DNA of 64,000 bases from a candidate division FCPU426 bacterium (GTDB lineage: Bacteria; Oederibacteriota; Muellerivitia; Muellerivitales; Muellerivitaceae): the NCBI GenBank assembly GCA_963719085.1, contig CAVRAL010000004.1, forward strand, positions 960,001 to 1,024,000. Reading direction: 5' to 3'. Each line of letters opens with the position of its first letter. Position 1 is the stretch's first letter. The notes below the pieces were generated by a model. The model saw only the letters and a program-made list of their open reading frames with translations. It made no database searches and was not told the origin of the DNA. Shown one piece after another: positions 28,828 through 64,000 of this stretch. Made by a program: the position numbers and the translations under genes.

Positions 28828-28973
28828 GAAAAGCTCCTTAAAATGAGAGGACTTAAAAATTGCCGGATTCTACCGATGGCATCAGTTTAACTTTTTTTGC
28901 TTTCCCGGTAAAGGTTTAGCGGCTGGGTGTGGTGAAATAGGCCGGGAGTTTGAGCGTGAATAAAGGAGAACAA

Positions 28974-40801: not shown

Positions 40802-40810
40802 GAAGATAAA

Positions 40811-40826
40811 CTTTATTAATTCTTTA
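40811..40826 (-). promoter_or_regulatory. TAAAG-N6-TAAAG direct repeat (putative OmpR-family box)
   Basis: CTTTAttaattCTTTA on +, 11-bp period, in the intergenic region upstream of GH74; AT-rich context, so it could be chance. Confidence 0.35.
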
Positions 40827-40997
40827 ATGGCAGTCAAAAATATCGATTTAACCGCTTCTTTTACCGATGAGAGCTGGATTGGGCTTTGCTTACCAGTGCC
40901 TGTATTTTTCAAGAGTTTTAAATTTAGGGTAAACTCTGCACTTGTCCTATTTGAGAAAAAACGTTTGCGAGACTTAAATCGTTTGAAGACGACCGGA

Positions 40998-43900
40998 ATG
41001 AATTTAACAAAAAAAAGACACTTCCTATATGTTGCCCTAATTCTGACCGCTTTAAGCGGTTCGAGGGCCTTTGCCCAAACCTACACTTGGAAAAATGTGA
41101 CGGTTCCAGCTGGAGGTTTCGTTTCCGGCATCGAATTCAGTCCGGCTCAAAGCGGGCTGGTCTACGCGCGTACCGATATTGGCGGGGTTTATCGCTGGGA
41201 CAATACGAACAGCGTTTGGATTCCTTTAACCGATATGTTTAGTAATGCCCAGTACAACAATTATGGCGGCGAAAGCTTGGCCCCTGATCCAACCAACGCG
41301 AATATCGTTTATGTGGCCGCAGGGATGTATATATTCAACGGTAATGGCGTAATCCTGCGTTCCACGGACCAAGGTAATACCTGGACCAGCAATGCTATTG
41401 CGGTGCCTATGGGCGGAAATTACGACGGTCGCAATGCGGGTGAGCGCTTGGTCGTGGATCCTAATCTTGACACCACCCTCTATTTCGCCAGTCGAAGCAA
41501 CGGACTGTGGAAAAGCACGAACTCCGCTACGAGTTGGAACCAAGTTACCGCGTTTCCGGTGACTGGAGACGCCACCTACGGATTGAGTTACGTGACGATC
41601 CTTCCCGGCGGGAATCCGGGATCGGGGGCCGAGACGATCTTTGTTGGTGTGGAAGCCATGGCTTCCGGAAACAGCAACCTCTATCGGTCTACCAACGCAG
41701 GCGCCAGCTGGACCCTGGTTCCGGGTGGGCCCACCAATATGATCACCCCACACGCGGACTTGGGCATAGACGGCAATTTGTGGATGGTCTATGACAGTGG
41801 TGGTTACGGTCCCAACGGAATTACTACAGGACAGATTTGGAAATTAAACACCAGTACTTTGGCTTGGACTCATGTTGCTTTGCCGAACCCGGCTGCGGGT
41901 AGCGGCGGTTATGGCGGCATCAGTGTGGATGCCCAAAACGCACAGCATGTGGTGGTCACCACACTGGATTGGTGGGGCGGTCCGGACCATATCTACGCGA
42001 CCACCAATGGCGGGACTAGTTGGTCCATCATTGGAAATGTCCAAAATAGTTGGGATGGTTATGCCGCTCCCTTCGCCTTTTACGACAACAACGGCGCGAT
42101 CTGGACCCGCTTTTGCTCCACCTATGACGGGGGTGTGGGCTGGCAGGGAGACATCCGCATCGATCCCTTCAACTCCGGCCACGCCATCTACACGACCGGC
42201 GGCGGGGTTTGGGACAGCTCCAACATTACGGCCGTAACCCAGCCCGCCGGCGTGACTTGGACCTTCAAAGATTATGGCCTGGAAGAAACCGCCGTCACTG
42301 ACATGATGCCTTCGGCGGCGGGTGGAGTTTTCTTCAGCGCTTTTGGGGATATCTCCGGTATGCGGCATACCAACCTGACCCAGTCGCCGGCCGGGGGGAT
42401 GTATTGTAATCCGTCTTTCACAAACACCACGGGCATTGATTACGCCGAGTCCGGCCCCGCGACCATGGTGCGGGTGGGAAACTCGGGCACGGCTTCCACT
42501 GACGGGGCCTACTCCATCAATAACGGCGCCAGCTGGACTCCTTTTGCCGCCATGCCGGTGGGCTATGGCACCGCCAACGAAATGCAGTCCGTGGCCATTT
42601 CCGCCAACGGAGCCAATATCGTTGCCGTTCCCGTGAACGGGTATGGCACGCCCAGTTATTCCACCAACTTGGGAGCCAGCTGGGCGGCCTGCGCGGGATT
42701 GCCGAATGGTTCCCAGATTGCTTCGGATCGGGTGAACTCCAATATCTTTTACGCCACCTCCGGAACGACTCTTTATGTTAGTACCAACGGCGGCGCAAGC
42801 TTCGCCTCCGCGGGTACCTTTGCCGGCGGTGGGCGCCCTCGGGCGGTTTTCGGCATTGCCGGTGAAGTTTGGGTTCCGGCGGGCAACAGCGGGCTGTACC
42901 AGTTTACGAATGTGGGTTTGGGGGTGGTGACTACTACGAAAATTGCCAATGTTTCCAGCGCGGCGGCGGTGGGTTTTGGGAAGGCCGCCAGCGGCTTCAC
43001 CCATCCGGCGGTTTATGTGGTGGGGACGGTGAGCGGAACCTATGGATTCTTCCGTTGTGATGACGGCGTGGGCACAACTTGGACAAGGATCAATGACAAT
43101 AACCACCAGTACGGCGCGGTTGGGTTCGCCTCAGGTGATGAGACGGTCTACGGCCGGATGTATGTAGGCACTAACGGACGAGGGATTCTTTATGGTGACA
43201 CCAGTGTTACAACCCCCACGCCGACCCCGACCGCCACACGGACGGCTACTGCTACACCAACGCCCACTTTAACCGTCACCAAAACCCAAACCCCGACCGC
43301 GTCACCGACTCTAACCCCCACTCTGACGATGACAAAAACCTTTACATTGACCGCTACGCCTTCTTTAACTCCGACTTCGTCTCCCACCTCGACTCGGACG
43401 GTGACCCCTACTGTATCCCCGACGGCTAGCTTGACGGCAACCACGACCCGCACTCCGACGATGACCGCGATGCCGACGATGACGTTGACGCCGTCGCAGA
43501 CCACAACGCCGGTAGCGAGCGTTACCAATACCTATACGCCGACCGTGACAGCGACTCCCTCCGTGACCTCAACTAGGACCGCCTCGCCTACGGCTACGGC
43601 GTCGCCTACGGCCACACTTTCCGCGACCTCGACGGCGACTCGAACCCAGAGCGCGACGCCTTCCACGACCAAAACGCCGACGGTGACGACGACGCCGACG
43701 GTGACCTTGACGCCCCAATTTACCTTTACGGTGACTTTGTCTTTCACGCCCACCCCATCGACCACCTGGACCCTGTCGCCCACGGCGACCGCGACCCCTA
43801 CGGCCACCTCCACCAAGACCGCGACTTCCACCGCGACCGCCACCTTTACCCCGACCCGCACCATGACGCCGCCTTTTACCGCCACTCCGACGCCTACCAG

Positions 43901-44633
43901 CACCTCGACGGCGACCGCTCTACCCACCTCGACCTTGACGCCCTTGCCCACGGTGAGCCTGCAGTTGAATACGTCGTCTTCCTCGGCGGATGCGGGGCAA
44001 AGCTATAGCTATACCTGGGAGATTACGGTGACAGGAAGTTCGCCGCAGAACGGGACGCTGACCCAAAGCCTGCCGGCGGGAGTGACGGTGACGGGATTCT
44101 CCGGGTCTTCGGGGGTGGTGAATGGAAACCAAATCACGTGGAACCTGAACAACCTGCCGGTGGGAGTGACTCAATTGCAGGTGAATGTGGAGATTGACGG
44201 TTCGGTGGCGGGAGGGACGGAGCTTTCAAGCCAAGGGACGCTGAGCTATACGGGAGGCTCGGCCTCGTCCAACAGCGCCTCGGTGAGCGTGGTGGCTTTG
44301 ACCTCAACGCCCACCTCGACGCCGACCTTGACGTTTACGCCGACGCCGGAGCCTATAGGGGGAGTGCCGGTGTTGTACCCGAACCCGGTGAGCGGCCCGG
44401 GCCCGGTGAACATCCAATTGCCGACCTATCCGGGGACGAGCAAGGTGACGGTGCAAGTGTTCACGACGGCGTTTAGGATGGTGAACGAATTCTCGGTGAC
44501 CCAGGCGGGGGGAAGCGTGGTGTCCCTGCCCTTGACGGACCGGAACAACCGGCCCTTGGCGAACGGGCTTTATTACGTGCTGGTCAACTCGCCGGCGGGT
44601 AAATCGATTCTCAAACTGCTGATCCTGCGCTGA
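40998..44633 (+). CDS. Secreted GH74 xyloglucanase + Thr/Pro linker + DUF11-like Ig domain + T9SS-like CTD
   Basis: [32 protein letters not shown] repeats (STxxGxSW), GTNGRG; ATG 40998 gives a signal peptide. Confidence 0.9.
43430..44614 (+). repeat. 1185-bp direct repeat, copy A (linker-DUF11-CTD block)
   Basis: Matches 46534-47718 (offset 3104) with about 5 substitutions seen. Confidence 0.93.
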
Positions 44634-44878
44634 GGTCTGTTTAGAACTCAGCACGCCAAGGCTTGTGTCTCATCTTGAAGATTCGGCACAAGCGGCGCTG
44701 AGGCACAAGCCGAAGCGCAAGGGTTGGTCATGCCAATTCCGAATGGGAATTGGCTCATCCTGCGCTGAGGTCTGTTTAGAACTCAGCACGGCAAAGCTTA
44801 TGCCTCGGCATAGCCAGCGCTGACCGTTGTATCGGTCAGCACGGCAAGATATGTCTCCTTTTGAAAATTCGACATAGG
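44622..44878. repeat. Structured intergenic repeat cluster (REP/BIME-like)
   Basis: 34-bp exact repeat at 44622-44655 and 44757-44790; three GCGCTGA...TCAGCACG hairpins and several further stem-loops. Confidence 0.7.
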
Positions 44879-45076
44879 TAGTTTTAAGCCTGTTTGTAAT
44901 TGACTTTTATTCCAAAAAAGTTGACTTTTTTTATGCCGGATAAGTCTGTACGTTAAAGCGCCATATTTTAACGGTTCAAATTTCCTCTGAAAAATTAGGT
45001 GTTTTTCCCTCTATATACTGATTGTTGGTAGACTTAGCTCATCGTCATCCATATCGGCTGAAACCGAAGGGGATTT

Positions 45077-47737
45077 ATGTCGTTTTTTGCCCATAACCAA
45101 AAATCGTTTTTTGCCGCCAAACCGTTGCTGAGCGGGCTCCTTTTTTTGGCCATGATGGTTTTTGGCTTTTCAACCGCTTTCGCGCTTCCGCCCCAATTAA
45201 AAGTTCAAGGCAATGAATTGGTCACCGCCAGCGGCGGTTGTACGGTTCGCTTGACCGGCGTCAATGTGGATTCCACCGAATGGGACGCCGCGGGTGAGTA
45301 TCCGTCCGGGGGGAGCTTCATGACCCAGGTACAGGAAGCCGTCCAATATTGGAATGTCAATTTGATCCGTGTGGCCATCGACCAGGATTGGTGGGACGGA
45401 TTCGCCCAAAGCTCCCGGGGCGCCACCAGTCAGGCGAATTATCAAGCCATGATTGATTCGGTCGTCGCCTACTGTAATACCAACAATATCTATTGTGACT
45501 TGGACCTGCATTGGTCCGGGGACGGAACCACGGGATCGGCCATCCAGCAATATTCCATGCCCGATGACAACAGCGTGACCTTTTGGACCAGTATGGCCGC
45601 GCGTTACGCCAACAACCCTTCCGTTTTATTCGATCTTTTCAATGAGCCTTTCACCAATTCCTGGACCGTCTGGCTCAATGGGGGGACGACCAGCGAGGGG
45701 TTCCATACGCCGGGGTTTCAGTCTTTGCTGAATACGATACGCAATACTTCCAGCGGCGGGGGCGCCTATGCCAGCGGCACAAAGGCGGAAAATGTCTGCA
45801 TCGTCGGCGGTCAACAGTATTCTTATTACTACGTGGGCATGAGTCCGGTGGTGGATGTGGCGGGCGGCAACGGGGTGGTCTATTCGGCGCATATCTATAA
45901 CAACAAAGGCACCAACAATGCCACCGGCTGGCAGACCAACATTGATCCGGCGCTCACTTATGGTCCGGTACTCGTTGAGGAATTCGGGAACTCGAACGCC
46001 GAAACCGACAATGGAGCCTTCGTGAATACTTTGTTGCCTTGGATTAACGGCACAAACGACAAGAATTATGTTTACAGCGCCATGGCCTGGGATCTGGATC
46101 TTTCGGCGGGCCCGTCTTTGATTACCACATGGTCCTCAACCCTTTCGGCGCCGGTTTCCACGGGAACCACCGGTTGGGTATTAACCAACTTTGAAGGGCA
46201 ACAGATTTACGCTTGGTTGAAGGGGATAACTTATCCGACTTGTTCCTCGGGGCCCACCGCCACGCCGACCGTGGCCTTTACTAAAACTTTTACATCCACC
46301 ATGACCTTGACCCCAACCCAAACTCCGACGGCCACGGCTACCCGGACGCCGACTTTAACGCCCACTGCCACCCGGACCGCGACGGTCACCCCAACAGCGA
46401 CCGCCACGATTGTTTTGACGGCTACCCCAACGAAGACCGCTTCTCCCACAACCACTGCGACGCCAACCCAAACCGCCACGAAGACAGCGACTTTGACGCC
46501 AACGTTTACGATGACCCCAACACCGACCCACACCTTGACGGCAACCACGACCCGCACTCCGACGATGACCGCGACGCCGACGATGACGTTGACGCCGTCG
46601 CAGACCACAACGCCGGTAGCGAGCGTTACCAATACCTATACGCCGACCGTGACAGCGACTCCCTCCGTGACCTCAACTAGGACCGCCTCGCCTACGGCTA
46701 CGGCGTCGCCTACGGCCACACTTTCCGCGACCTCGACGGCGACTCGAACCCAGAGCGCGACGCCTTCCACGACCAAAACGCCGACGGTGACGACGACGCC
46801 GACGGTGACCTTGACGCCCCAATTTACCTTTACGGTGACTTTGTCTTTCACGCCCACCCCATCGACCACCTGGACCCTGTCGCCCACGGCGACCGCGACC
46901 CCTACGGCCACCTCCACCAAGACGGCGACTTCCACCGCGACCGCCACCTTTACCCCGACCCGCACCATGACGCCGCCTTTTACCGCCACTCCGACGCCTA
47001 CCAGCACCTCGACGGCGACCGCTCTACCCACCTCGACCTTGACGCCCTTGCCCACGGTGAGCCTGCAGTTGAATACGTCGTCTTCCTCGGCGGACGCGGG
47101 GCAAAGCTATAGCTATACCTGGGAGATTACGGTGACAGGAAGTTCGCCGCAGAACGGGACGCTGACCCAAAGCCTGCCGGCGGGAGTGACGGTGACGGGA
47201 TTCTCCGGGTCTTCGGGGGTGGTGAATGGAAACCAAATCACGTGGAACCTGAACAACCTGCCGGTGGGAGTGACTCAATTGCAGGTGAATGTGGAGATTG
47301 ACGGTTCGGTGGCGGGAGGGACGGAGCTTTCAAGCCAAGGGACGCTGAGCTATACGGGAGGCTCGGCCTCGTCCAACAGCGCCTCGGTGAGTGTGGTGGC
47401 TTTGACCTCAACGCCCACCTCGACGCCGACCTTGACGTTTACGCCGACGCCGGAGCCTATAGGGGGAGTGCCGGTGTTGTACCCGAACCCGGTGAGCGGC
47501 CCGGGCCCGGTGAACATCCAATTGCCGACCTATCCGGGGACGAGCAAGGTGACGGTGCAAGTGTTCACGACGGCGTTTAGGATGGTGAACGAATTCTCGG
47601 TGACCCAAGCGGGGGGAAGCGTGGTGTCCCTGCCCTTGACGGACCGGAACAACCGGCCCTTGGCGAACGGGCTTTATTACGTGCTGGTCAACTCGCCGGC
47701 GGGTAAATCGATTCTCAAGCTTTTAATACTTAGGTAA
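45077..47737 (+). CDS. Secreted GH5 cellulase-family enzyme + Thr/Pro linker + DUF11-like domain + T9SS-like CTD
   Basis: LTGVN, NLIRV, DLDLHW, FDLFNEP (acid/base), HIY, VEEFG (nucleophile). Confidence 0.9.
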   Translation: MSFFAHNQKSFFAAKPLLSGLLFLAMMVFGFSTAFALPPQLKVQGNELVTASGGCTVRLTGVNVDSTEWDAAGEYPSGGSFMTQVQEAVQYWNVNLIRVAIDQDWWDGFAQSSRGATSQANYQAMIDSVVAYCNTNNIYCDLDLHWSGDGTTGSAIQQYSMPDDNSVTFWTSMAARYANNPSVLFDLFNEPFTNSWTVWLNGGTTSEGFHTPGFQSLLNTIRNTSSGGGAYASGTKAENVCIVGGQQYSYYYVGMSPVVDVAGGNGVVYSAHIYNNKGTNNATGWQTNIDPALTYGPVLVEEFGNSNAETDNGAFVNTLLPWINGTNDKNYVYSAMAWDLDLSAGPSLITTWSSTLSAPVSTGTTGWVLTNFEGQQIYAWLKGITYPTCSSGPTATPTVAFTKTFTSTMTLTPTQTPTATATRTPTLTPTATRTATVTPTATATIVLTATPTKTASPTTTATPTQTATKTATLTPTFTMTPTPTHTLTATTTRTPTMTATPTMTLTPSQTTTPVASVTNTYTPTVTATPSVTSTRTASPTATASPTATLSATSTATRTQSATPSTTKTPTVTTTPTVTLTPQFTFTVTLSFTPTPSTTWTLSPTATATPTATSTKTATSTATATFTPTRTMTPPFTATPTPTSTSTATALPTSTLTPLPTVSLQLNTSSSSADAGQSYSYTWEITVTGSSPQNGTLTQSLPAGVTVTGFSGSSGVVNGNQITWNLNNLPVGVTQLQVNVEIDGSVAGGTELSSQGTLSYTGGSASSNSASVSVVALTSTPTSTPTLTFTPTPEPIGGVPVLYPNPVSGPGPVNIQLPTYPGTSKVTVQVFTTAFRMVNEFSVTQAGGSVVSLPLTDRNNRPLANGLYYVLVNSPAGKSILKLLILR
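46534..47718 (+). repeat. 1185-bp direct repeat, copy B
   Basis: Near-identical to 43430-44614. Confidence 0.93.
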
Positions 47738-47749
47738 CGGTTGTCAGTT

Positions 47750-47794
47750 AATAAATAAAGGCCGGCCCCATTAAGGGTCGGTCTTTTTTATTTT
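47750..47794. terminator. Bidirectional intrinsic terminator
   Basis: A-rich run, GGCCGGCCC-loop-GGGTCGGTC, then TTTTTTATTTT, between convergent genes. Confidence 0.75.
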
Positions 47795-47797
47795 GGG

Positions 47798-49255
47798 CTA
47801 ACGCATGACCGTGACGGTGCTTCGGTGTGTCGCCCCATCCACTTGGATAATGAAAACGTAAACTCCGGGAGCCACGCTATTTCCGGCGTCATCCAGCCCA
47901 TCCCACGTCAACACTTGAGAAGCCTGAAAGTCGATGGATCTTATTTTACGCCGCCTTAAATCCGTCACCACCAAGTGGCCCGGGCCGTGATAGGGGTTCA
48001 GGTTAAAGTGAGTCAAGTCATTGGGCGGATGGCCGGGGGTAAAGGGGTTGGGGCTCACAAAGGGCGTGGACAAGGGCGGCGGAATGGAACAAGCGGAAAG
48101 CGCCAGGGCGCCAAAGGTTCGGGAATCAACATTATCAAAAAAAGTCCCGTTCCAAATGAGCTCTCCCGCCCGGCACCCCGCGTCGCTTTCATAAACACCT
48201 AGGTCGAAACCCAGCGTCGTTCCAGCGGAAGGCGTCAGGCCTAAAGTGGTCCAGGGAATGGCCGCTTCCAAGGTATATCCGTTGGATAGGGTGGTGGTTG
48301 AAAAAAGGACCCCGGTGGTGCGGTTTTGACGTTCGCCTACCACGGGGTTGTTCCAACCGAAGGTGAAACCGAAATCATCCGCTTGGTTGGTTGGGCCCAA
48401 GATGTTGTCGGTATTCAGGAAAACCTCGACCGTGTCGTTGTTAAAAGCTTGTGACGCGGCGTTGGAGAGGTTGTTTTTAATGACCGTGACGCCGATGTAA
48501 AGATATTGGTTATCCCACAAGGTCTTGAATTGAGCTGAAGTGCCGGCCGTGGACCCATCGGCCGTTTGTGTGACGGGTATCCAGGGGCCCTGCCAGGCGG
48601 GTTCCGAAAAGATTCCATCCTCGGTTAAAGTCGCGGGCTGGCAGGAGATGCCGGACGCCAAGGCGGTTCGGGCGGGGGAAATGGGCGCCTCGGGCTGCCC
48701 TGAATAAAGATAGCCGATATTGATCAACTGAAAGCCGGGAGCGGTCGAGTATTTCCAGCTCAAATTCACCGCGTTGGCGCCCGTGGCCGCTGTGTAGTCC
48801 ATTTCAATCGGGACCGGAGTTGCGGCGGGGAGGGTCGCGACGGCCGTATAAGTCGCGGAAAAAGGGCCGGGCCATTGGCTGATGAGGACACTATTGTTAA
48901 TGAGCAGGCTGACACCGCCATTTTGCGGGGAGAGACTGAAGGTATAGGGGGCGCTTCCGGCGACCGGCGGCACCAGAAATCCAGTGAAGCGGGCGCTGAA
49001 ATTATCCTTGTTGATGACCCCGTCTTCCGGGGAGCAATTAAACCAGTTGAAATTCGTACTTTCTTCCGTCCGGGTATAGGCGGGGGCGCCTGTTAGTGTG
49101 GAGTTGTTGTAATAAGAAGCCAGCAAGCCGTCACCGATGGCTGGAAGGGGAGTGGAGGTGGGAGTAGGTGTTTGCGCCACCGAAGTCATTGGGATGAAAA
49201 AAACAAAGACCCATAGCATTTTGAAGAGTCTTGAATCGAGGCTGGCGCGGTTCAT
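47798..49255 (-). CDS. Secreted PA14 + CBM9-like sugar-binding protein with FlgD/T9SS-like CTD, no catalytic domain
   Basis: PA14: GLLASYYNN, NFSARFTG; CBM9-like: LWDNQYLYIG, DTVEVF, YTLEAAIPW, LGFD; CTD: SPNPFTP, WDGLD, PGVYV. Confidence 0.8.
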   Translation of the reverse strand: MNRASLDSRLFKMLWVFVFFIPMTSVAQTPTPTSTPLPAIGDGLLASYYNNSTLTGAPAYTRTEESTNFNWFNCSPEDGVINKDNFSARFTGFLVPPVAGSAPYTFSLSPQNGGVSLLINNSVLISQWPGPFSATYTAVATLPAATPVPIEMDYTAATGANAVNLSWKYSTAPGFQLINIGYLYSGQPEAPISPARTALASGISCQPATLTEDGIFSEPAWQGPWIPVTQTADGSTAGTSAQFKTLWDNQYLYIGVTVIKNNLSNAASQAFNNDTVEVFLNTDNILGPTNQADDFGFTFGWNNPVVGERQNRTTGVLFSTTTLSNGYTLEAAIPWTTLGLTPSAGTTLGFDLGVYESDAGCRAGELIWNGTFFDNVDSRTFGALALSACSIPPPLSTPFVSPNPFTPGHPPNDLTHFNLNPYHGPGHLVVTDLRRRKIRSIDFQASQVLTWDGLDDAGNSVAPGVYVFIIQVDGATHRSTVTVMR

Positions 49256-49938
49256 GGCATAATCCGATAACCAATTTGGGGAATGGTCTCGATCTTACGG
49301 CCGGCGGGACCCAGTTTTCCCCGCAAGTGCCCCAAATGCACGTCGACGACCCGGGGAACCAAATAAGTGTTGGGGCCCCAGGCGAACTTGACGATCTCTT
49401 CCCGGGTCAGGGCTTTTTCGGGATGGGATAAAAGCACCCGTAGAATGTCAAATTCCCGGGCCGTGAGTTCCACGGATTTTTCCTTATAAAGCACTTTGTG
49501 GGAATGCAGGGAAAGTTTTAGGTCGCCTAAAATGAGCGCTTGTTCCGGCGGGGCGAATTCAGGATTCTGACGCCTTAAAATGACTCGGATGCGGGCCTCG
49601 AATTCCCGCTCATTAAAAGGTTTGGTCAAGTAATCGTCGGCACCCGCTTCCAGCCCCGCCACAATGTCATCCGAGGAGGCCCGGGCGGTCAGGATGAAAA
49701 CAGGAAGATCCCGGGTCGAGTTTTCTTTTTTGAGGCGGCGGCACAGGTCCAAACCGTCCCCGTCAGGAAGATTCAGGTCCAGCACCAAAAGATCGGGTTT
49801 GGCTTTTTGGACCGCTTCCCACCCCTCTTTCGAATTCGTGGCGGTTTCCACCCGGTAGTTTTCGGCCAAAAGCAGGTCCCGGGTCAAGGTTAAAACGGAA
49901 GGGTCGTCCTCCACGATTAAAATAAAGGGGCCGCTCAT
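49252..49938 (-). CDS. OmpR/PhoB-family response regulator
   Basis: IVEDD, LVLDLNLP, GADDYLTKPF, winged helix LTAREF...VDVHLGHLR...GY. Confidence 0.95.
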   Translation of the reverse strand: MSGPFILIVEDDPSVLTLTRDLLLAENYRVETATNSKEGWEAVQKAKPDLLVLDLNLPDGDGLDLCRRLKKENSTRDLPVFILTARASSDDIVAGLEAGADDYLTKPFNEREFEARIRVILRRQNPEFAPPEQALILGDLKLSLHSHKVLYKEKSVELTAREFDILRVLLSHPEKALTREEIVKFAWGPNTYLVPRVVDVHLGHLRGKLGPAGRKIETIPQIGYRIMP

Positions 49939-51350
49939 GAGTGCGCTCCTGTCGGATACCATCGAGTGGGATCGGGTTGTTTGGGCAGCTTGACGGTAAA
50001 CCGGGTGCCTTGTCCCAAGGCGCTTTTCACGTCCACCCCGCCGCCTAGGGCGCCGGTCAGCCCCTTCACAATGGAAAGCCCCAATCCGCTGCCTTCCCGG
50101 GTTTGAAAATCTTTGGGTTGTTTCACCCGGAAAAATTTATCGAAGATCAGTTCGTGATATTGCGGGTCAATGCCGATGCCCGTATCGCTCACTTCCAAAA
50201 TAAAATCACCGTTGGCCTCCGTCACGATCATCTCAATGACGCCGTGATCGGTGAACTTGATGGCGTTGGAAAGAAGGTTCTGCGCGATTTGCCGGAACAT
50301 GGTGACATCCGAGATTAAAGAGATGTAGGGGGCTTTTTTGGTCAAGGTGAGGGCGAGTCCCTTCGCTTGGGCTTGGGATTGATAAAGAGCGGTCAACTCA
50401 TTTAAATGTGTCATCACGTCCACCGCTTCCAAATAAGGTTCCACCTTGGCTGCCTCGATGCGGGCCACGGTTAAAAGATTGTTGATGAATCCGATGAGGT
50501 GGGTCGTGTTGTTGGAAATCATGAGCAGGTATTCACCCTGCTTGTCGGTGAGGGTGCCGCCTTTTCCATTCTGCAAAAAATTGGCGGCGCTTCGAATCGC
50601 GTGCAAAGGGGTCCCCAGGTCATGGGTGACGCCGGACACGAAATCCCTTTTCATGGCGTCCAGTTCCTTCAGTTGAAGCACCATGCCGTTGAAGTCCCGG
50701 GCCAGGTCCCCGATCTCGTCCCCGCGGGCGACTTGGACCAGCGAGTCCAGTTTTCCCTGGCGGACCAAGCGGGTGCCTTCGCTGATTTTTTTCAAAGGTT
50801 TCACCAGGGCTTTAGCGACCAGCCAAGACACCAGCCAGCCCAAGACCAAAGTAACCCCGGCCGTGAAGGCGCCTAAGCCCATCCACCGGCGCAATTGGGT
50901 TTGAATTTCTTTTTCCAGGGCTTGGGCGGAATAGCCGATCTCCACCCAACCCGCGGGGCCGTTTCCCGCCTGCACCTTTTGATAAAGAGAGGCGACCCGG
51001 GTGCCGTTGACGAGCCGGATGGATTGGGTTGATTCGGCGGCTCGGGGAGGCAGCGTGAGGGAAGGCGGCTGGATGATCCGCGAGCCCGTCACGGGATTAA
51101 AAAAAGCCGTATAAACAATGTCGGGATTTTGCGAGGCCAGGCGCATGAAATTAAGGACCGCCACATCCTCCCGTTGAAGCGCGGCTTCCCGCGCGGCCAG
51201 CGCGAAAGAGGCCAAATATTGTTTTTGGTCGGTTTCAGCTTGGTGTTTTAAAACCCAACGGGCGCCCGCGTAAAACAAGACAAAGACCGCCGCCAGCGTG
51301 AAAAGAACCAGTCCGGCGTGGCTTAAAAGAAAACGTTCCTTTAATTTCAT
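49935..51350 (-). CDS. Sensor histidine kinase (2 TM, periplasmic domain, HAMP, HisKA, HATPase)
   Basis: DEIGDLARDFN, VTHDLGTPL, NLLSNAIKFT, DTGIGI, GSGLGL. Confidence 0.95.
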   Translation of the reverse strand: MKLKERFLLSHAGLVLFTLAAVFVLFYAGARWVLKHQAETDQKQYLASFALAAREAALQREDVAVLNFMRLASQNPDIVYTAFFNPVTGSRIIQPPSLTLPPRAAESTQSIRLVNGTRVASLYQKVQAGNGPAGWVEIGYSAQALEKEIQTQLRRWMGLGAFTAGVTLVLGWLVSWLVAKALVKPLKKISEGTRLVRQGKLDSLVQVARGDEIGDLARDFNGMVLQLKELDAMKRDFVSGVTHDLGTPLHAIRSAANFLQNGKGGTLTDKQGEYLLMISNNTTHLIGFINNLLTVARIEAAKVEPYLEAVDVMTHLNELTALYQSQAQAKGLALTLTKKAPYISLISDVTMFRQIAQNLLSNAIKFTDHGVIEMIVTEANGDFILEVSDTGIGIDPQYHELIFDKFFRVKQPKDFQTREGSGLGLSIVKGLTGALGGGVDVKSALGQGTRFTVKLPKQPDPTRWYPTGAHS

Positions 51351-53197
51351 GGGGTGCCCGCTCCCGCTTCCAGTTTGGCCCGGACCAAGTTGTTTTGGGC
51401 GTTCAAATTATTGGGGTCAATTTTCAAAGTCTCCTGCCAGTCCTTCACGGCTTCGGCGTTATCTCCGCTTAAATAAGCCCGCAGGCCTTTTTGATAAAGA
51501 TCCTGGGCTTGGCGGGATTGATCGGCGCTCAACTTTTCCGCGGCCCCCGGAGCGGTTTCACTTAGTTTAGCGCCGGCTTGGGCGTTGGAAGGATCCAGCG
51601 CGATCACTTTTTTCCAGTCTTCCCGGGCCAGGTCGGGGCGGCCTTTTTGAGCGTAAAGGTCGGCTTCCAATAAAAGCCGGTCGACCTGGGGATTGGCGGC
51701 GGCCGGGGCGGAGGTTTTTGAAAGCGACCGCGCCAGCTGGGCAAACCAAGGATCGTTCGGATAAAGGGTTTGGCCCTGGGTTAAAAGCTCACCGGCTGTT
51801 TTTCGGTCTCCCTGGGCCAGCGCGGCGAAGGCCCGTGAAAGCAGGTCGTGGGCTTGGGGTTCCGCCGCCGGTCCGGGCGCGGCCGGCTGGTTTTTCAAGC
51901 GAACCGCGGCCGCTTGGTATTGGGGCTGGGTGGGATCCAATTGGGCGGCCCAATCGTCATCCCGCTGGGCTTCCGTCAAGGATCCCTGGGACTCGGCGGT
52001 TTGGCCTAGGGCGAAATACTGCGCGGCTCTTTCCTGGTTGTAATGGGTCAGGGCATCCTGCTTTTCCGAAAGCACCGAAGCGTCATTGGGTTTTATTTTC
52101 AAAGCTTCCAAGTAATACCAAAGCGCGGACCGCCAATTTTTAGCCTGGGCCGCGTCCCGGGCTTTTTCCAAAAACCAACCATAGGGGCCGGCGGTTTGGG
52201 GCGCGACAGGGGGGGAGCCCTTGAAAGTGAGCTCGAGCTCGTAATTGGCCGGAAGGCCCTCGGAATCGATGGAAGGCTCGGTCCCCCAGGAAAAAAGATA
52301 GGCATAGTCCAATTGCAAAAAGGAATTGCTCCATCCGATCCCTAACGCCCCTTGGTTAGCGTCCCCGCCGGCCCGCAAGGCCAGGCCTAAGAAAGGAAGC
52401 CGCCATTCGGCCCCCCCTTGGGTTTCCAGCCCCGCTCCCAGGTCTTGCTGGGACAGGGTCAAGTTCAAGGAACCGGCATCGGCGAGGGAAAGGTCATAGG
52501 CCGCGCCCCAGCGCCAAGCGATAGGGAAGCGGTAAACCCCGATCACGCCTAAGTTGGGTTGGGTGAGATCGTCCGCGGATAAACCCAGGGTTAACGAGGG
52601 AAGGGGTTGATAAAGAATCCCCGCGCCCAGTGAAAAAGCTCCGCCGGAATAATTGGAAACGCCTAGGGAAGAATTAAGGATATAAGCCTGTTTGAGATAG
52701 GAAAATGAGAATCCTATTTGAAAATGTCCGAGTGTTTTTAGCTCGGTGAGGTCCCGCCCCCAAGCCAATTGAAATCGGTCTTGCTGAAGGTTGTTGGACC
52801 CAAAGTGGTCCCAAGCAAGCCCGGCGACGCCCAGATCTTCCAAGGGTAGGGCGGCGGTTAAACCGCTGGTGGAAAGCGAGTCTTGTTCCAAGCCGGGCTC
52901 CAGCGCTTGGTACCGGGCAGAGAGATTCAGGCGGTCGATTAAGCCCAGTCCCGCCGGGTTGAAATAAAAACTTTCAGAACCTTCCGGATCGGCGACCAAA
53001 TTTCCCCCCATGCCCGCCGCGCGGGCGGGCGGATCGAAATCCAAAAAAGCCTCTCGGGATGGAGCGGGCGCCAACAAGATCGCCCACCCGGCCATCGGTG
53101 CCAGAAAAAAGGTGAAAAAACGACGATAACGGAAAACGTTTTTGTTCAAAGCCGGCCCGATTGAAGTAATTTTTTCTTCCCGATCCACGGGTGCCAT
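51347..53197 (-). CDS. PorV/FadL-like outer-membrane beta-barrel fused to C-terminal TPR repeats
   Basis: FLDFDPPARAAGMGG...FYFNPAGL N-terminal motif, amphipathic strands ending LRAG...LDYAY; TPRs with W.E.LKIDP.N; start uncertain. Confidence 0.75.
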   Translation of the reverse strand: MAPVDREEKITSIGPALNKNVFRYRRFFTFFLAPMAGWAILLAPAPSREAFLDFDPPARAAGMGGNLVADPEGSESFYFNPAGLGLIDRLNLSARYQALEPGLEQDSLSTSGLTAALPLEDLGVAGLAWDHFGSNNLQQDRFQLAWGRDLTELKTLGHFQIGFSFSYLKQAYILNSSLGVSNYSGGAFSLGAGILYQPLPSLTLGLSADDLTQPNLGVIGVYRFPIAWRWGAAYDLSLADAGSLNLTLSQQDLGAGLETQGGAEWRLPFLGLALRAGGDANQGALGIGWSNSFLQLDYAYLFSWGTEPSIDSEGLPANYELELTFKGSPPVAPQTAGPYGWFLEKARDAAQAKNWRSALWYYLEALKIKPNDASVLSEKQDALTHYNQERAAQYFALGQTAESQGSLTEAQRDDDWAAQLDPTQPQYQAAAVRLKNQPAAPGPAAEPQAHDLLSRAFAALAQGDRKTAGELLTQGQTLYPNDPWFAQLARSLSKTSAPAAANPQVDRLLLEADLYAQKGRPDLAREDWKKVIALDPSNAQAGAKLSETAPGAAEKLSADQSRQAQDLYQKGLRAYLSGDNAEAVKDWQETLKIDPNNLNAQNNLVRAKLEAGAGTP

Positions 53198-53300
53198 TCT
53201 AAATCTTCAAGCCATTCTAAGTCTTTTTAAACTGCGGCTTTAAAAACTTCGCGGCTTAGGCCCATTTCAAAAGCCCTTTATTAACGATATCCAAGCAAAA

Positions 53301-53320: not shown

Positions 53321-53368
53321 GGGGGAGGGGGATGCCGAGCTTAGTCTTTTAAGCCGGGTCGGTTCGAT

Positions 53369-53384
53369 TAAAGAAGCCGTAAAG
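53369..53384 (+). promoter_or_regulatory. TAAAG-N6-TAAAG box facing the first PL4 gene
   Basis: TAAAGaagccgTAAAG; TGnTATGAT -10-like element at about 53420-53428. Confidence 0.55.
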
Positions 53385-53493
53385 AGTGCTTTGGGTGGCT
53401 GGGCAAAAAAGTCCACGCTGTTATGATCCGCCTTAAGTGGTTGACGCCGCTTGAAATTTATTTTCTTCCATCGGGAAGCTTTGAGGAAATCTT

Positions 53494-56400
53494 ATGCGCC
53501 TGACTAAAAATGTTTTGAGCTTGGGTTTGAAGACGGCCTTTTTGACGACGGTTTTCCTGGCGGCCTTCACGAACTTATCCTACGCCAATGTTCCCGGGGG
53601 CGGCACGGGTACGGGAGCCAATGTGACCGTGACCCAAAATGGCGCGAACGTCGTGCTGTCCAACGGCATCGTCACCTTCACGATCGACACGACCAACGCC
53701 AATATCACGAACTTCACCTACAACGGAACGAACCTTCTAGCCGGAGGAAGCGGCGGGGGTCACTTTTACATTGACGGCTCGGGTGGACCTACCTTCAACA
53801 ATCCTACTTACACCCTGACGGTGAATCCCGCGGATAACGGCGGCAACCAGGCGGAAGTGTGGCTCCAACAAACGGGCAGCCCCATGGACGCCGCGGCCTA
53901 TTTCGACCTGTTGCGCGGACAACAAGGTTTTTACGACACGGTGATCCTCACCCACCAAGCCAGCTATCCCGACTACCCCGGCGCTGAACTGCGTACGAAC
54001 GTCTATGTGGGTTCCATATTCAACTGGCTGGCCGTGGACCCCTATCGGTTCCGGGAGATGGGATCACCAAGCGACTCATCCATCGCCGTGCCGGGCGCGC
54101 CCAAGGAAGTGACCCAGTGGACCAGTGGGATTTATAACGGGCTTACGGAATGTAAGTATGGTTACAGCGATCCGCTGGGCCAACTCAACGTATGGGGCTG
54201 GGCTTCCACGACCGCTCCCTACGGCATCTGGCAGACGGTTCCCAGCCACGAATACTATGACGGCGGGCCCATGCACCGGGAACTCACCGAGCACATCGGC
54301 AACACCCTGTTGAACATGTTCGGGGGCGGTCATTACGGCTTCGGCTCGGACGGGGACCAACCCGCGGGAACCTTCTCATCCAAGACTTTTGGTCCCGCCT
54401 TTGTTTACGCCAACAAATATGCCGGTTCCTCCAGCGATCCTGTTTCCCTGAAAGCCCAAGTCCTTTGGGCGGATGCCCAAGCCCAGGCGGCGGCGGAGCA
54501 GGCCGCATGGCCTTATACTTGGTTCAAACCCCAACCGATTGCCGGCATGACCGGATCCGCTTATCCCCAGGCCAGCGCCCGCGGCACAGTGAACGGAACC
54601 TTCGCCATTAACGACGCTTTCAATCCAAGCGCCTCGCCCGTGAGCATGTGGATTGGTTTGGCTCCGGTTGACGGCGGGATTGATTTCCAACAGCAGTACC
54701 TGACTTGCCAGTTCTGGGTTAAGACCGGACCCGGCGGCAGCTTCACCATCCCCAACGTTCTGCCGGGAACTTATAATTTGTGGGCCTTTGGTCCGGGCGC
54801 GGCCGGCACCTTTGAAAAGACAAACGTTACCGTGGCCGCCGGCCAGGCCTTGAGCCTTGGCACGGTGACCTGGACTCCCCCCCGCTTAGGGGCCACGGTG
54901 TGGCAGATTGGAATTCCGGACCGCAATTCGAATGAATTCAACAACGGCGAACATTTATTGACGCCTTATACCGGCGTATTGCCGGGCTATGCCGGTGGCG
55001 CGCCGTTCAATACCCCGGCGGCCTGGGGCGCGTTCATGGGTTACTCGAACCAATACCCCAATGGGGTCAGTTTCGTGGCCGGGACCAGCAACTATGCCAC
55101 TGACTGGAATTATGTCCAGCCCACGGTACCCTCCGGAAGCTCCTTTGTCGGATCGACTTCCAAGATCTTTTTTAATTTGGTCACGGCACCCACGGCGGCC
55201 CAACAGGCGAGGCTTTATATTGCTTTCGCGGCGGTCAACAGTGGGGCTTGCATCCTCACCGTCAATGGGGTGGTCCAGACCGGTACGGTTATGGGATCCA
55301 CGGATGGCATCTACGGCGCCATTGGCAATTCGGCTAATGGATTTGTCCCGCCTAACCATAGTTTCGACACTCCCTTACGCCTGGGTTCGAATGGGGCCTG
55401 GGGCGATGCCTACCTGAATTTTCCGGGAACAAGCCTGAAGGCGGGCCGGAATGAGATTGACATCACTCTTCGTCCCACCGGCGGCGCCAGTCTGGGACAA
55501 GGTTTTGAATACGATTATTTGCGCTTGGAACTGACCGGATATGTTTCAGGAACACCCACTTCCACACCGGTGGTTTCCGCTCCCACCAATACACCGACCC
55601 GGACTTTGACATCGACTCCGACTTCAACGGCCACTGCTACGAGAACGGCGACTGCGACAAGCACCGCCACGCCTACCAAGACATCCACGAATACACCGAC
55701 TCGAACCGCCACCATGACTTCAACGGTTACCGCGACGGTAACTAAAACGATTACACCCGTCCCCCCAACCGCTACTCCAACACCTGTGCCGCCCACTGTT
55801 ACCAGAACCCCTACTTTGTTGGTGTCGGCTACGGAAACCGCTACGCCCACCTGGACCTTGAGTCCGGTTCCGCCAACCGTGACCGCCTCGCCTACGGCTA
55901 CACCTTCGTTGACTTCGACATCGACGGTGACGCGCACACCGGTGCCGCCCACGGCTACATTAACGAAAACATTGACGCCGGTTCCTCCGACGGCGACTCA
56001 TACATTGGTTCCGCCGACTTCGACGCTAACTTCGACTCCCACGGTGACCAGGACACCCTTACCGCCCACATTGACGCCCACCTTGGTTCCGACCAATACG
56101 CCTACGGGCACGGGATCCTTGACGGTGTATTTGTTGTCGGGAGTCACGACGAATACCACCAACAGCCCCCATCCCCAGATTGAGGTGAAGAACACGGGGA
56201 CGGCGCCCTTGAACCTGAATAATGTGGAAGTGCGCTACTGGTTCAACTGCGACTGCACGGGCCAATCGATCCAAACCTGGGTGGACTGGGCGGGATGGAT
56301 GCCCGCGGGAAGCACGGTCACGGCGGATGTGCTGACCTCGGTGGTGGCCACGACTTTGGGAGGCCAGACCGATTACGTGAGCTATAAGTTCGCGGGGAAC

Positions 56401-56949
56401 CTGACGCTGCAGCCGGGCCAGAGCGTGCAAATCCAAAGCCGTTTCAACAAGAGCGATTGGAGCAACATGCTTCAGAATAACGACTGGAGCTACACGGCTT
56501 CGACCAGCTTCACCTTGTCGACCAAAATCACCGGATACCTGAACGGATCCCTGATTTGGGGACAGGAACCGGTTGTGACGGCTCCCGCCGCGCAGACGGA
56601 AAACCTTTTGGCTTTCCCGAACCCTTCCACGGGGACGGGAGTGAACCTGTCGGTCAACCTGGGCGGCGCGAGCGCTTCTTCCATTGGGGCCAAATCCGTG
56701 AGTACGTCGCCGGGAATCGATCCGGACGCGCTCGTTACCTTCCGGGCCTATAGCCTGGACGGCCAATTGGTTTGGGTGAAGACCGTGACGGCGGAAAGTT
56801 TGGAATCTTCCGGCACTCACAGCCTCTACTGGAACGAGCGGAACTTGGAAAACCAGTCCTTGTCCAGCGGGATGTACATCGTGGTCGTCGCGGTGAAGTC
56901 GGGGACCCAGTCCAACACCGCGACCACGAAGGTCGTGATTTTAAAATAA
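53494..56949 (+). CDS. Secreted rhamnogalacturonan lyase (PL4) + Thr/Pro linker + CBM3 + T9SS-like CTD
   Basis: ECKYGYS, HEYYDGGPMHRELT, MFGGGHYG, GTYNLWAF, WQIGIPDR, YDYLRLE; CBM3 VKNTG...VRYWF...KSDWSN..QNNDWSY. Confidence 0.88.
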   Translation: MRLTKNVLSLGLKTAFLTTVFLAAFTNLSYANVPGGGTGTGANVTVTQNGANVVLSNGIVTFTIDTTNANITNFTYNGTNLLAGGSGGGHFYIDGSGGPTFNNPTYTLTVNPADNGGNQAEVWLQQTGSPMDAAAYFDLLRGQQGFYDTVILTHQASYPDYPGAELRTNVYVGSIFNWLAVDPYRFREMGSPSDSSIAVPGAPKEVTQWTSGIYNGLTECKYGYSDPLGQLNVWGWASTTAPYGIWQTVPSHEYYDGGPMHRELTEHIGNTLLNMFGGGHYGFGSDGDQPAGTFSSKTFGPAFVYANKYAGSSSDPVSLKAQVLWADAQAQAAAEQAAWPYTWFKPQPIAGMTGSAYPQASARGTVNGTFAINDAFNPSASPVSMWIGLAPVDGGIDFQQQYLTCQFWVKTGPGGSFTIPNVLPGTYNLWAFGPGAAGTFEKTNVTVAAGQALSLGTVTWTPPRLGATVWQIGIPDRNSNEFNNGEHLLTPYTGVLPGYAGGAPFNTPAAWGAFMGYSNQYPNGVSFVAGTSNYATDWNYVQPTVPSGSSFVGSTSKIFFNLVTAPTAAQQARLYIAFAAVNSGACILTVNGVVQTGTVMGSTDGIYGAIGNSANGFVPPNHSFDTPLRLGSNGAWGDAYLNFPGTSLKAGRNEIDITLRPTGGASLGQGFEYDYLRLELTGYVSGTPTSTPVVSAPTNTPTRTLTSTPTSTATATRTATATSTATPTKTSTNTPTRTATMTSTVTATVTKTITPVPPTATPTPVPPTVTRTPTLLVSATETATPTWTLSPVPPTVTASPTATPSLTSTSTVTRTPVPPTATLTKTLTPVPPTATHTLVPPTSTLTSTPTVTRTPLPPTLTPTLVPTNTPTGTGSLTVYLLSGVTTNTTNSPHPQIEVKNTGTAPLNLNNVEVRYWFNCDCTGQSIQTWVDWAGWMPAGSTVTADVLTSVVATTLGGQTDYVSYKFAGNLTLQPGQSVQIQSRFNKSDWSNMLQNNDWSYTASTSFTLSTKITGYLNGSLIWGQEPVVTAPAAQTENLLAFPNPSTGTGVNLSVNLGGASASSIGAKSVSTSPGIDPDALVTFRAYSLDGQLVWVKTVTAESLESSGTHSLYWNERNLENQSLSSGMYIVVVAVKSGTQSNTATTKVVILK
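56107..56949 (+). repeat. CBM3-CTD repeat block, copy A
   Basis: 56107-56599 near-identical to 59055-59547 (offset 2948); CTD part patchily similar to the stop. Confidence 0.9.
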
Positions 56950-62753: not shown

Positions 62754-62795
62754 AACCGGTTCAATGAGATTCGGTTATTGGTCATCGCCTTCTTA

Positions 62796-62813
62796 TAAAG
62801 AAACCTTAAAGAA
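62796..62813 (+). promoter_or_regulatory. TAAAG-N6-TAAAG box upstream of the second PL4 gene
   Basis: TAAAGAAacctTAAAGAA; also TTAAG-N6-TTAAG at 62830-62845 and TATCAT at 62848. Confidence 0.55.
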
Positions 62814-62916
62814 GCTCAAGATGAGCTTTTTAAGCTTTTTTTAAGGCTATCATTCTTTCAACGACTGAAATCGTTTTTGAATTCTAGATAGCTTCGGGCC
62901 CTTGAAGAGGATCTCG

Positions 62917-64000
62917 TTGAGACTAAAAAACAACAAATTTATTCACGGTTTAACGCTGGCGGGCCGGCTTTTGACTTTCTTCTTTATCGGGATTGTCTCA
63001 GCTCACGCCAACGTGCCCGGCGGCGGCACCGGCACCGGCGCCAATGTGACCGTCACCGACAACGGCGGGACCGTGGTTCTCGCGAACGGCATTGTTTCCT
63101 TCACGATCAATAAGACCAGCGGTAATATTTCCAACTTCACTTATAACGGCACCAACCTTCTGGCTGGCGGCAACGGCGGAGGGTCCTTTTATTTCGACGG
63201 TTCCGGCGGGCCCGGTCTGACGAACACCGTCTATACGTTGACTGTGAATCCCGCCAACAACGGCGGCAACCAAGCGGAAGTGTGGCTTCAATCAACGGCC
63301 AGTCCCATGGACATGGCCGTCTATTACGATTTGCTTCGCGGACAACAGGGCATCTACGATACGGTGATCTTTACCCACCAGACCGGTTATCCGGACTACC
63401 CCGGCGCCGAACTGCGTTCCAATATGTATGTGGGCTCCATCTTCGATTGGTTGTGCGTGGATCCTTACCGTTTCCGACAAATGGCTCCTCCCAATACCGC
63501 GGTGACCACGGTGGCCGGAGCACCGCCGGAAGTGATGCAATACACCGCCGGGCCCTATAACGGACTGACGAATTGCAAATATTCCTACAGCTCTCCCCTG
63601 GGCCGGCTCGATACCTGGGGTTGGGCCTCCTCGACCTCGAAATACGGCGTTTGGCAAACCGTTCCCAGCCACGAATACTATGACGGCGGCCCCATGCATC
63701 GGGAACTCACCGAACATATCGGAAACACGCTCTTGAATATGTTTGGAGGCGGCCATTATGGATTCGGTTCGGACGGGGATGAGCCCGCCGGCAGTTTCGT
63801 CTCCAAGACCATCGGTCCCGCTTTCATTTACGCCAACCAGTACACGGGTCCGGCCAGTGATCCCGTTTCTCTCAAGGCCCGGGTCCTTTGGGCCGACGCG
63901 CAGGCGCAGGCCCAAGCGGAACAATCGGCCTGGCCCTACACTTGGTTCAATCCCCAGCCGGTGACCGGAGCGACCGGTACGGTTTATCCCCAGGCCGCCG
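62917..64000 (+). CDS. Second PL4 rhamnogalacturonan lyase paralog (3' truncated by window edge; absent from the ORF track)
   Basis: TTG 62917 after GAGG; MRLKNNKF...ANVPGGGTGTGANVTV; colinear with the 53494 gene incl. HEYYDGGPMHRELTEHIGNTLLNMFGGGHYG. Confidence 0.9.
   Translation, partial: MRLKNNKFIHGLTLAGRLLTFFFIGIVSAHANVPGGGTGTGANVTVTDNGGTVVLANGIVSFTINKTSGNISNFTYNGTNLLAGGNGGGSFYFDGSGGPGLTNTVYTLTVNPANNGGNQAEVWLQSTASPMDMAVYYDLLRGQQGIYDTVIFTHQTGYPDYPGAELRSNMYVGSIFDWLCVDPYRFRQMAPPNTAVTTVAGAPPEVMQYTAGPYNGLTNCKYSYSSPLGRLDTWGWASSTSKYGVWQTVPSHEYYDGGPMHRELTEHIGNTLLNMFGGGHYGFGSDGDEPAGSFVSKTIGPAFIYANQYTGPASDPVSLKARVLWADAQAQAQAEQSAWPYTWFNPQPVTGATGTVYPQAA

Follow-up and report, generated by a model that had tools for sequence, protein, structure and literature searches.

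The sensing of insoluble polymers that cannot be imported is known in diderm bacteria mostly through TonB-dependent receptors and the uptake of fragments. In the FecA-FecR-FecI, SusC/anti-sigma and RcsF or NlpE relays, a periplasmic domain of an outer-membrane protein contacts an inner-membrane sensor. We analyse here a cassette of four genes, located at positions 47798-53197 of a 64,000-nt stretch (the window) of contig CAVRAL010000004.1 from a candidate division FCPU426 bacterium, which probably enables the cell to respond to something at its surface by turning on secreted enzymes. The cassette encodes an outer-membrane barrel with a tetratricopeptide repeat (TPR) tail (P0001), a sensor histidine kinase (P0002), an OmpR-type regulator (P0003) and a secreted protein (P0004) ending in a C-terminal domain (CTD) of the type IX secretion kind. 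We regard it as an even call whether this is a trans-envelope signalling unit built from type IX secretion parts. The cassette differs from the TonB-dependent transducers by its barrel family and by its ligand-binding head, which is a separate secreted protein. Indeed, domain scans and the structural model gave no 22-stranded TonB receptor, FecR or extracytoplasmic function (ECF) sigma factor among the four cassette genes, TonB receptors being encoded elsewhere in the genome.

Type B CTDs have their cognate PorP/SprF shuttle encoded just downstream, and their cargo stays bound to it, according to excerpts of three reports (PMC12618676, PMC9143113, PMC12635249). As in these pairs and in PG1035-PorP-PorE, the CTD gene of the cassette lies, at most loci (28/43), directly upstream of its own barrel. 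The type B/PorP-SprF likeness extends to one barrel per CTD type, a cargo that presumably stays bound, a barrel coupled to a periplasmic partner, and weak matches to PorP_fam in the P0001 family and to CHU_C in P0004 orthologues (E 0.003-0.2, 12-18 bits for a cut-off of 27). In contrast, P0001 has no match to the PorP/SprF model TIGR03519 (two orthologues reach 36 bits for a cut-off of 90.55), P0004 has none to the type B model TIGR04131 at E up to 1, the TPR is fused to the barrel, the partner is a kinase and not PorE or a gliding track, and P0001 contains no cysteine. A true type B CTD/PorP pair was dropped on account of these scores, below the family cut-offs; a genome-wide scan for type B CTDs was blank, its positive control being equally silent.

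In Porphyromonas gingivalis, the CTD protein PorA is bound to PorV (PMC7712824) and its CTD activates PorY in the periplasm (PMC12152298), as stated in excerpts of these papers. Both the PorA-PorY-PorX-SigP system and the cassette combine a PorV-type barrel and a membrane kinase with a small CTD protein whose head is lectin-like, in the control of type IX-linked genes. However, PorA uses the general PorV and acts via its CTD in the periplasm, and PorX works through SigP, whereas in the cassette the four genes are linked, the barrel is a dedicated one carrying a TPR tail, and the OmpR regulator has a predicted box of its own. Another relative is RsgI3 of Clostridium thermocellum, which binds pectin, while SigI3 activates a rhamnogalacturonan lyase gene (excerpts of PMC6852018 and PMC4711584). 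The clostridial PA14 domains are the closest solved relatives of that of P0004 (6qdi, E 1e-22; 6qe7, E 8e-19), the output includes a rhamnogalacturonan lyase, of family PL11 in C. thermocellum and, by prediction, PL4 in the present case, and exchangeable sensing heads sit on a constant transducer. On the other hand, RsgI is a single membrane-anchored anti-sigma factor of a monoderm, whereas here the head belongs to a secreted protein by itself, the host has an outer membrane and the signalling genes are those of a two-component system; the DcisD calcium motif is missing from the PA14 of P0004. Finally, TP0548, TP0859 and TP0865 of Treponema pallidum combine a 14-stranded barrel, an NPA hatch and C-terminal periplasmic TPR-like helices; these FadL-like proteins differ by their short three-helix tails and are proposed importers, the excerpts of the report mentioning no CTD cargo or kinase link (PMC8407342).

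The initial annotation of the locus knew of no described system with this layout. We found no description of a dedicated unit of barrel-TPR, kinase, regulator and cargo in the open-access literature, whose supplements could hold neighbourhood tables, and excerpts of PMC7031533 contain nothing on such a unit. The claim thus stands for the combination, but not for its parts, since cognate CTD/barrel pairs, barrel-TPR fusions and PorA-PorY are already in print. What is new here is a predicted repeat box that travels with the cassette and precedes genes of secreted CTD proteins. Signalling through a secretion shuttle barrel would put type IX parts to a new use, one outside Bacteroidota, and would give a function to many barrel-TPR fusions of uncultured phyla.

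A cassette inherited as a unit

The cassette genes and their domains are the following.

51347..53197, minus strand: P0001, PorV/FadL-fold outer-membrane barrel fused to a TPR tail (Pfam, NCBIfam, structural model)
52220..53053, minus strand: hatch (NPAG motif) and 14-stranded barrel of P0001, residues 49-326 (model)
51368..52186, minus strand: TPR tail of P0001, residues 338-610, four helical modules with loose linkers (Pfam TPR, model)
49935..51350, minus strand: P0002, sensor histidine kinase with transmembrane segment (TM)-sensor-TM-HAMP-HisKA-HATPase_c layout (Pfam, alignment)
50886..51254, minus strand: periplasmic single-Cache-like sensor domain of P0002, with a conserved acidic tip (E55, E61, D62) and a variable beta core
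49252..49938, minus strand: P0003, OmpR/PhoB-family response regulator, Response_reg-Trans_reg_C, D54 invariant
47798..49255, minus strand: P0004, signal peptide (by eye), PA14, CBM9-like domain and cassette-specific CTD (Pfam)
48734..49132, minus strand: PA14 domain, closest solved relatives the clostridial RsgI PA14 sensors
48095..48610, minus strand: CBM9-like domain (CBM9_1, Pfam)
47801..48064, minus strand: cassette-specific CTD, single copy per cassette family-wide

The four open reading frames (ORFs), all on the minus strand at the coordinates first annotated, are joined by three ATGA stop/start overlaps that can be read off the sequence (51347-51350, 49935-49938 and 49252-49255). They stand amid genes of secreted carbohydrate-active enzymes (CAZymes), i.e., GH8, GH5, PL4, CBM3 and PL1-like by Pfam in the window. 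This layout, and the prediction that the four genes would recur together, were both borne out.

We surveyed 99 genomes of the phylum, including 30 other genomes of the family, and took further loci from metagenomes. Of the 30 family genomes, 15 have a near full-length P0001 orthologue and two more a split or distant one; orthologues are also present in two genomes of another family. The barrel-TPR, the sensor-type kinase and the CTD subtype occur in 17, 17 and 16 of the 30 respectively, in the same genomes (the 17th CTD gene is interrupted by a contig end and intact in locus L091), and all three are missing from the remaining 13. There is one CTD of this subtype per cassette, two in both two-cassette genomes and zero in the 13 genomes without cassette. 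Searching the 99 genomes with a profile of the sensor region yielded 22 strong matches in 20 genomes, all directly behind a barrel-TPR gene or its end. Among 43 loci tallied, several of them redundant, all 38 with enough DNA beyond the TPR have the kinase directly after it and show an identical gene order, so that the arrangement is more than chance. The CTD gene is the one whose place varies: it sits behind the regulator at five of the 43 loci, as in the present window, and at two more where it is cut by a contig end, while it is of another type at one locus and could not be placed at seven. In one sub-clade, the regulator consists of one receiver domain alone, and a GGDEF protein is encoded after it. 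We consider the cassette to be a real and tightly conserved unit, with a fair chance of representing a new class of trans-envelope receptor.

Some candidates were not retained as members. Weak relatives of the sensor occur in HD-GYP and adenylate cyclase operons (20 loci), and most of them have no barrel-TPR gene immediately before them; among these 20 weak or split loci, besides L150, only L137 has one. A TPR-only protein encoded before a Cache-SpoIIE gene (L074, L147) has its orthologue at another place in the present genome and was not counted as support. One second copy of the cassette (L049, G049:C75) carries many frameshifts and stops, as do its neighbours, and is possibly on a sequencing-error contig.

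The CTD protein changes its head from one cassette to another. Cassette CTDs are 32-82% identical to that of P0004, while the heads differ: PA14-CBM9 (7/43 loci, some redundant), ConA/DUF1349-like (weak Pfam matches, Atlas score 0.93), malectin, legume lectin, Big_7, or without assignment. No catalytic family scored above cut-off in the passengers of the 28 loci scanned, four of these passengers being truncated. Since the passenger is exchangeable, the conserved unit consists of the CTD, the barrel-TPR, the kinase and the regulator. Beside PA14 and CBM9_1, Pfam gives a weak FlgD_ig match in P0004.

The CTD itself appears private to the cassette. Against the CTDs of the enzymes, that of P0004 has a normalised score of 0.08-0.13, and the cassette CTD profile gives 131 bits on P0004 and 33 bits on the next best protein of the genome; the two kinds are indeed unlike, as the initial annotation had it. 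CTD similarity follows that of the barrel and not that of the passenger, with Mantel values of 0.44 for 18 pairs and 0.27 for the nine pairs of this genome, and CTD distances track barrel distances (0.56, 23 cassettes). A second PA14-CBM9 protein of the genome (E 4e-58) has a different CTD, a different barrel and no adjacent kinase. Copy number and CTD-barrel similarity thus support the proposed pairing of P0004 with its own barrel. Whereas PorV proper is a partner of SprA and of many type A CTDs, gene-level data point to P0001 being paired with one private CTD.

Other type IX parts are found in this genome (3.04 Mb, 99% complete). An SprA-like gene (1948 aa) matches its family at E 8e-35, under the cut-off, and PorV_fam gives 22 matches in about 20 genes, other barrels reaching 183 bits. 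PorU model matches are confined to CTD regions, and profile searches of the genome for GldM and GldN gave no match, the positive controls being silent too. Immediately upstream of PorV-family barrels there are at least eight further CTD genes; several of these barrels have TPR or OmpA tails, and most of the pairs are kinase-free. Private pairing would thus be habitual in the lineage, and the kinase is the mark of the present cassette.

The barrel, its tail and the kinase sensor

In the P0001 model, built from 22 sequences (predicted local distance difference test, pLDDT, 75.9), 14 strands span residues 91-326 and helices residues 338-610. Its top structural match is PorV (6h3i_F; Z 29.2, root-mean-square deviation 2.8, 268 residues aligned), which Foldseek likewise puts first. 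FadL-type barrels rank after it (Z 24.5-27.0; FadL and TodX 26.0-27.0), and identity in the structural alignment is 21% to PorV vs 15% to the FadL type. P0001 has the 14 strands, N-terminal hatch and NPA motif of the PorV/FadL structural family, the motif being invariant among its orthologues. By sequence the relationship is more distant: PorV_fam (PorV/PorQ, NF033709) matches at E 2e-11 with 44 bits, below the cut-off of 90, and PorV proper (NF033710) with 14.5 bits, below the cut-off of 250. The Pfam scan finds the TPRs and misses the barrel, the barrel sequence has no match in the PDB at E up to 10, and a profile search of the barrel retrieves PorV only at E 0.03. The barrel is thus PorV-like in fold, as first proposed, with scores under the family cut-offs. 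An even number of strands puts both termini of an outer-membrane barrel on the periplasmic side; hence the 14-stranded topology of the model supports the periplasmic location that had been presumed for the TPR tail. As for the start of the protein, ATG 53197 overlaps a conserved -10-like TAGAAT (53196-53201) and close orthologues begin at the codon matching TTG 53149, the more probable start.

P0002 and P0003 have the H, N and G boxes, receiver aspartate and winged helix of a HAMP-HisKA kinase and an OmpR/PhoB regulator, with H243 and the N/G boxes invariant in P0002 orthologues. The sensor is harder to class. Pfam sCache_3_2 has no match in P0002 and weak ones in 2/14 members, the sensor profile matches a true sCache_3_2 protein at E 2e-5 (probability 78%), and a fold search with the whole kinase was filled by catalytic-domain matches, uninformative on the sensor.

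Conservation over 24 cassettes suggests which surfaces meet. In the barrel, conservation is higher in the extracellular loops (0.47) than in the periplasmic turns (0.27). Within the tail, it is 0.33-0.39 in the first TPR modules and 0.47-0.52 in the last ones, the final module scoring best at 0.52, and within the sensor the tip (0.56) exceeds the beta core (0.31). This core, the usual pocket-former, is the least conserved part of the sensor and shows large indels. Over 23 cassettes, sensor distances track TPR distances with a partial r of 0.47 after removal of kinase core and barrel, whereas the same comparison with the CTD gives -0.03; with the kinase core alone removed, sensor tip vs CTD gives 0.38. 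A complex model of the TPR tail with the sensor scored 0.47 vs 0.20 for the best control, its runs sharing at least 62% of contacts with a partner pLDDT of at least 76. In our calibration, the mark for such models was reached by 116/157 solved pairs and 2/215 mismatched pairs, scores of 0.60 or less comprising 18/157 solved pairs and both mismatched pairs that reached it. The model weakly supports a contact between TPR tail and kinase sensor. Regarding the proposal that the tail relays ligand binding to the kinase, model and co-divergence speak for the contact, and the relay itself would be a further step.

The TCTTTAC repeat and its predicted targets

A direct repeat of 11-bp period, TCTTTAC-N4-TCTTTAC, was found before the cassettes and behind their regulators. 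In and around the present cassette, it accompanies the following features.

53368..53385, minus strand: direct repeat, predicted regulator box, between the cassette and the divergent PL4 gene
53422..53427, plus strand: -10-like hexamer of the PL4 gene, 36 nt from the box, a spacing kept in three relatives
53494..56949, plus strand: PL4 rhamnogalacturonan lyase with CBM3 and CTD, predicted target (Pfam, box)
62795..62812, minus strand: second box, one mismatch, 35 nt from a -10-like hexamer
62902..64000, plus strand: second PL4-like CTD protein, predicted target, running past the window end
40810..40827, plus strand: weaker box-like site before the 40827-44633 gene, with unmatched -10 spacing
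47757..47786, no strand: terminator-like hairpin between the cassette and the convergent GH5 gene

The box itself is supported by its conservation. It is present with at most three mismatches in 14/23 regions upstream of cassettes and with at most one mismatch in all seven regions behind the regulator. The three cassettes examined in which the regulator lacks a DNA-binding domain have 5-6 mismatches, as do four other cassettes. The exact pattern occurs 31 times in 14/18 cassette genomes (reversed-pattern control, 5) and four times in 3/13 genomes without cassette (control, 3); 14 of the 31 boxes lie in or near the cassette regions from which the pattern was taken and 17 elsewhere. The repeat has the trait of OmpR/PhoB regulons, i.e., an 11-bp-period direct repeat near the -35 region, and P0003 may well be the protein that binds it.

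In the window, both PL4 genes have one of the best sites before them, and each of these sites is 35-36 nt away from a -10-like hexamer; the PL4 gene is also divergent from the cassette at L087 and L088, and forward sites in other genomes often lie 32-33 or 42 nt from such a hexamer. Among the 58 CTD genes of the genome, the top three box scores belong to both PL4 genes and to the 40827 gene, which we take to be GH74-like, although Pfam gave Sortilin-Vps10 alone. A whole-genome position weight matrix scan gave 16 sites at a score of at least 14, many of them within genes, vs 7 expected, and genome-wide the median box score of CTD genes is no higher than that of other genes (P 0.30). The regulon would therefore be small here and would not cover all CAZymes. 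The promoter scan found sites no more frequent than in shuffled sequence. One distant box precedes a secreted polysaccharide deacetylase gene. The predicted box makes the output testable with purified proteins, despite the uncultured host.

A possible signalling route, its rivals and related loci

In the route that we consider, the CTD protein would be exported by Sec and an SprA-type pore and would stay docked on its own barrel via its private CTD, a docking that we infer from the gene pairing and from type B/SprF biology. The TPR tail, hanging in the periplasm, would contact the tip of the kinase sensor, and a change in the state of the docked cargo would switch the kinase. This change would most likely be the engagement of a polymer or surface via the exchangeable lectin-fold head, or the difference between a loaded and an empty barrel. 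The phosphorylated regulator would bind the TCTTTAC repeats and activate the cassette promoter region and genes of secreted CTD proteins, here the two PL4 rhamnogalacturonan lyases. A broader reading, which we hold as tentative and rather doubtful, is that type IX shuttle barrels form a general class of surface receptors, in which polymer binding by a lectin head docked by a private CTD passes through the TPR to a Cache-HAMP sensor with modular output: an OmpR regulator, a single-domain regulator with a diguanylate cyclase, or, at a second locus of this genome, a SpoIIE phosphatase with an anti-anti-sigma factor. Such a class would be the diderm counterpart of clostridial RsgI and would detect insoluble polysaccharide without uptake or TonB.

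Several observations weigh against the signalling route or narrow it. The co-divergence is that of linked genes of kin, so that its P values are overstated. Kinase-free barrel-TPR genes are common in this genome and in the phylum, hence a TPR tail alone is no sign of signalling, and the distant barrel-TPR-kinase-OmpR locus L137, like L048, has no cassette-type CTD adjacent. Box enrichment at CTD genes (3/58 vs 6/2317) holds for one of three thresholds tried, and only five of the 17 distant boxes lie before genes for large secreted proteins that have a CTD or are T/P-rich (DUF11, beta-propeller, DPBB). The PA14 of P0004 has NG at the position of the DcisD calcium motif (strand 5) of RsgI3 PA14-A, and the RsgI3 module with NG binds, on its own, neither calcium nor pectin, according to an excerpt of PMC6852018. 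QNGG is found in P0004 and most close relatives, a single D in L031/L091. In a PA14 without DcisD, sugar binding would rest on the CBM9-like domain, whose clamp is apparently half conserved: an aromatic residue (F/Y) stands at one of what we take to be the two clamp tryptophans, the second being unaligned. Moreover, passengers of unrelated folds fit a non-specific signal as well as swapped specificities, and contact with a surface or occupancy of the barrel is an equally plausible signal. The initial view of PA14-CBM9 as the sugar sensor of the module is therefore not supported in the form first given, the passenger being confined to 7/43 loci, its PA14 devoid of DcisD, and no result showing the signal to be a sugar.

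The same genes can be explained otherwise. The single-Cache fold usually binds small ligands, and since the sensor is single-Cache-like, the kinase might sense a small periplasmic molecule, the CTD protein and barrel being mere co-regulated targets on display and the TPR binding an anchor or chaperone. The mostly kinase-free CTD-barrel pairs elsewhere in the genome agree with this explanation, and autoregulation alone could hold the genes together. We nevertheless find it unlikely, as the pocket-forming core is the variable part of the sensor and its tip the conserved one, sensor divergence tracks the TPR, and the kinase always directly follows the TPR, even where the CTD gene has moved or where the output is a single-domain regulator with GGDEF and no box upstream. 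Slightly less probable still is a secretion feedback of the PorA kind, in which a periplasmic CTD would be the ligand of the kinase and the barrel would clear it to the surface, so that export capacity is gauged and the expression of secreted proteins is adjusted to it. The binding of the PorA CTD to PorY in the periplasm requires basic residues and the last strand (excerpt of PMC12152298); the cassette CTD has conserved basic residues (R435, R439, R478, R485) and the sensor tip has conserved acids, and such a feedback accounts for the exchangeable passenger and the secreted CTD targets. It leaves the conserved TPR tail unexplained, however, the sensor shows no tracking of the CTD after correction for barrel and kinase core, and L137 keeps barrel-TPR, kinase and regulator without such a CTD adjacent. 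By far the least probable is a FadL-type importer admitting a hydrophobic compound sensed by the kinase, with the CTD gene as a bystander. The FadL and TodX scores are close to that of PorV, the NPA motif is invariant, and Treponema FadL-like barrels with TPR tails are proposed importers (excerpt of PMC8407342), but sequence identity and the PorV_fam and PorP_fam matches place the barrel nearer to PorV, and each barrel has one private CTD with which it co-diverges.

Several other loci of this genome and its relatives associate CTD proteins, barrels and signalling genes. At G000:C5:217390-226379 (L070), a large CTD protein and a barrel-TPR are followed by a HATPase_c_2-sCache_3_2-HAMP-SpoIIE-HTH protein, its sensor a distant relative of that of P0002, and by STAS proteins. 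At G000:C4:937169-941307 (L064), a CTD protein and a barrel-TPR accompany an ECF sigma factor and a 262-aa putative anti-sigma factor with a terminal FlgD_ig/CTD-like domain; a 331-aa gene resembling the latter precedes another CTD/barrel pair (C4:1039394). At L080:124-8964 (G027), three CTD genes are followed by a gene that fuses a barrel to a phosphonate-type solute-binding domain, and then by kinase and sigma-54 regulator genes. In L079:3893-9600, L068:1082-5664 and L081:6201-9037, CTD/barrel pairs have OmpA fused or adjacent, resembling PorP-PorE in one or two genes. Six loci (L078, L083, L132, L133, L134, L142) carry a recurrent CTD-barrel pair beside a convergent beta-propeller gene (two other families), together with an sCache-HAMP-HD-GYP and adenylate cyclase operon. 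An SprA-like gene is joined to an FN3/CTD protein at G000:C1:939018-949364 (L072), and a second, shorter SprA-like match with LysM lies at C5:152281-155592. Look-alike barrel-TPR clusters were also found, as sequences alone without neighbours, in Elusimicrobiota, Zixibacteria, Calditrichota and Spirochaetota.

Elsewhere in the window, the 40827 and 45077 proteins (40827-47737) have an identical long C-terminal stalk and CTD, and the 53494 and 57015 proteins have the CBM3 and tail in common; these duplicated parts reflect recent duplication or conversion, or an assembly risk. Positions 33853-37092 encode an NB-ARC/TPR (STAND-type) protein of 1079 aa with an N-terminus that is cyclase-like by eye, and a single ORF at 28950-30713 encodes a tandem two-domain short-chain dehydrogenase.

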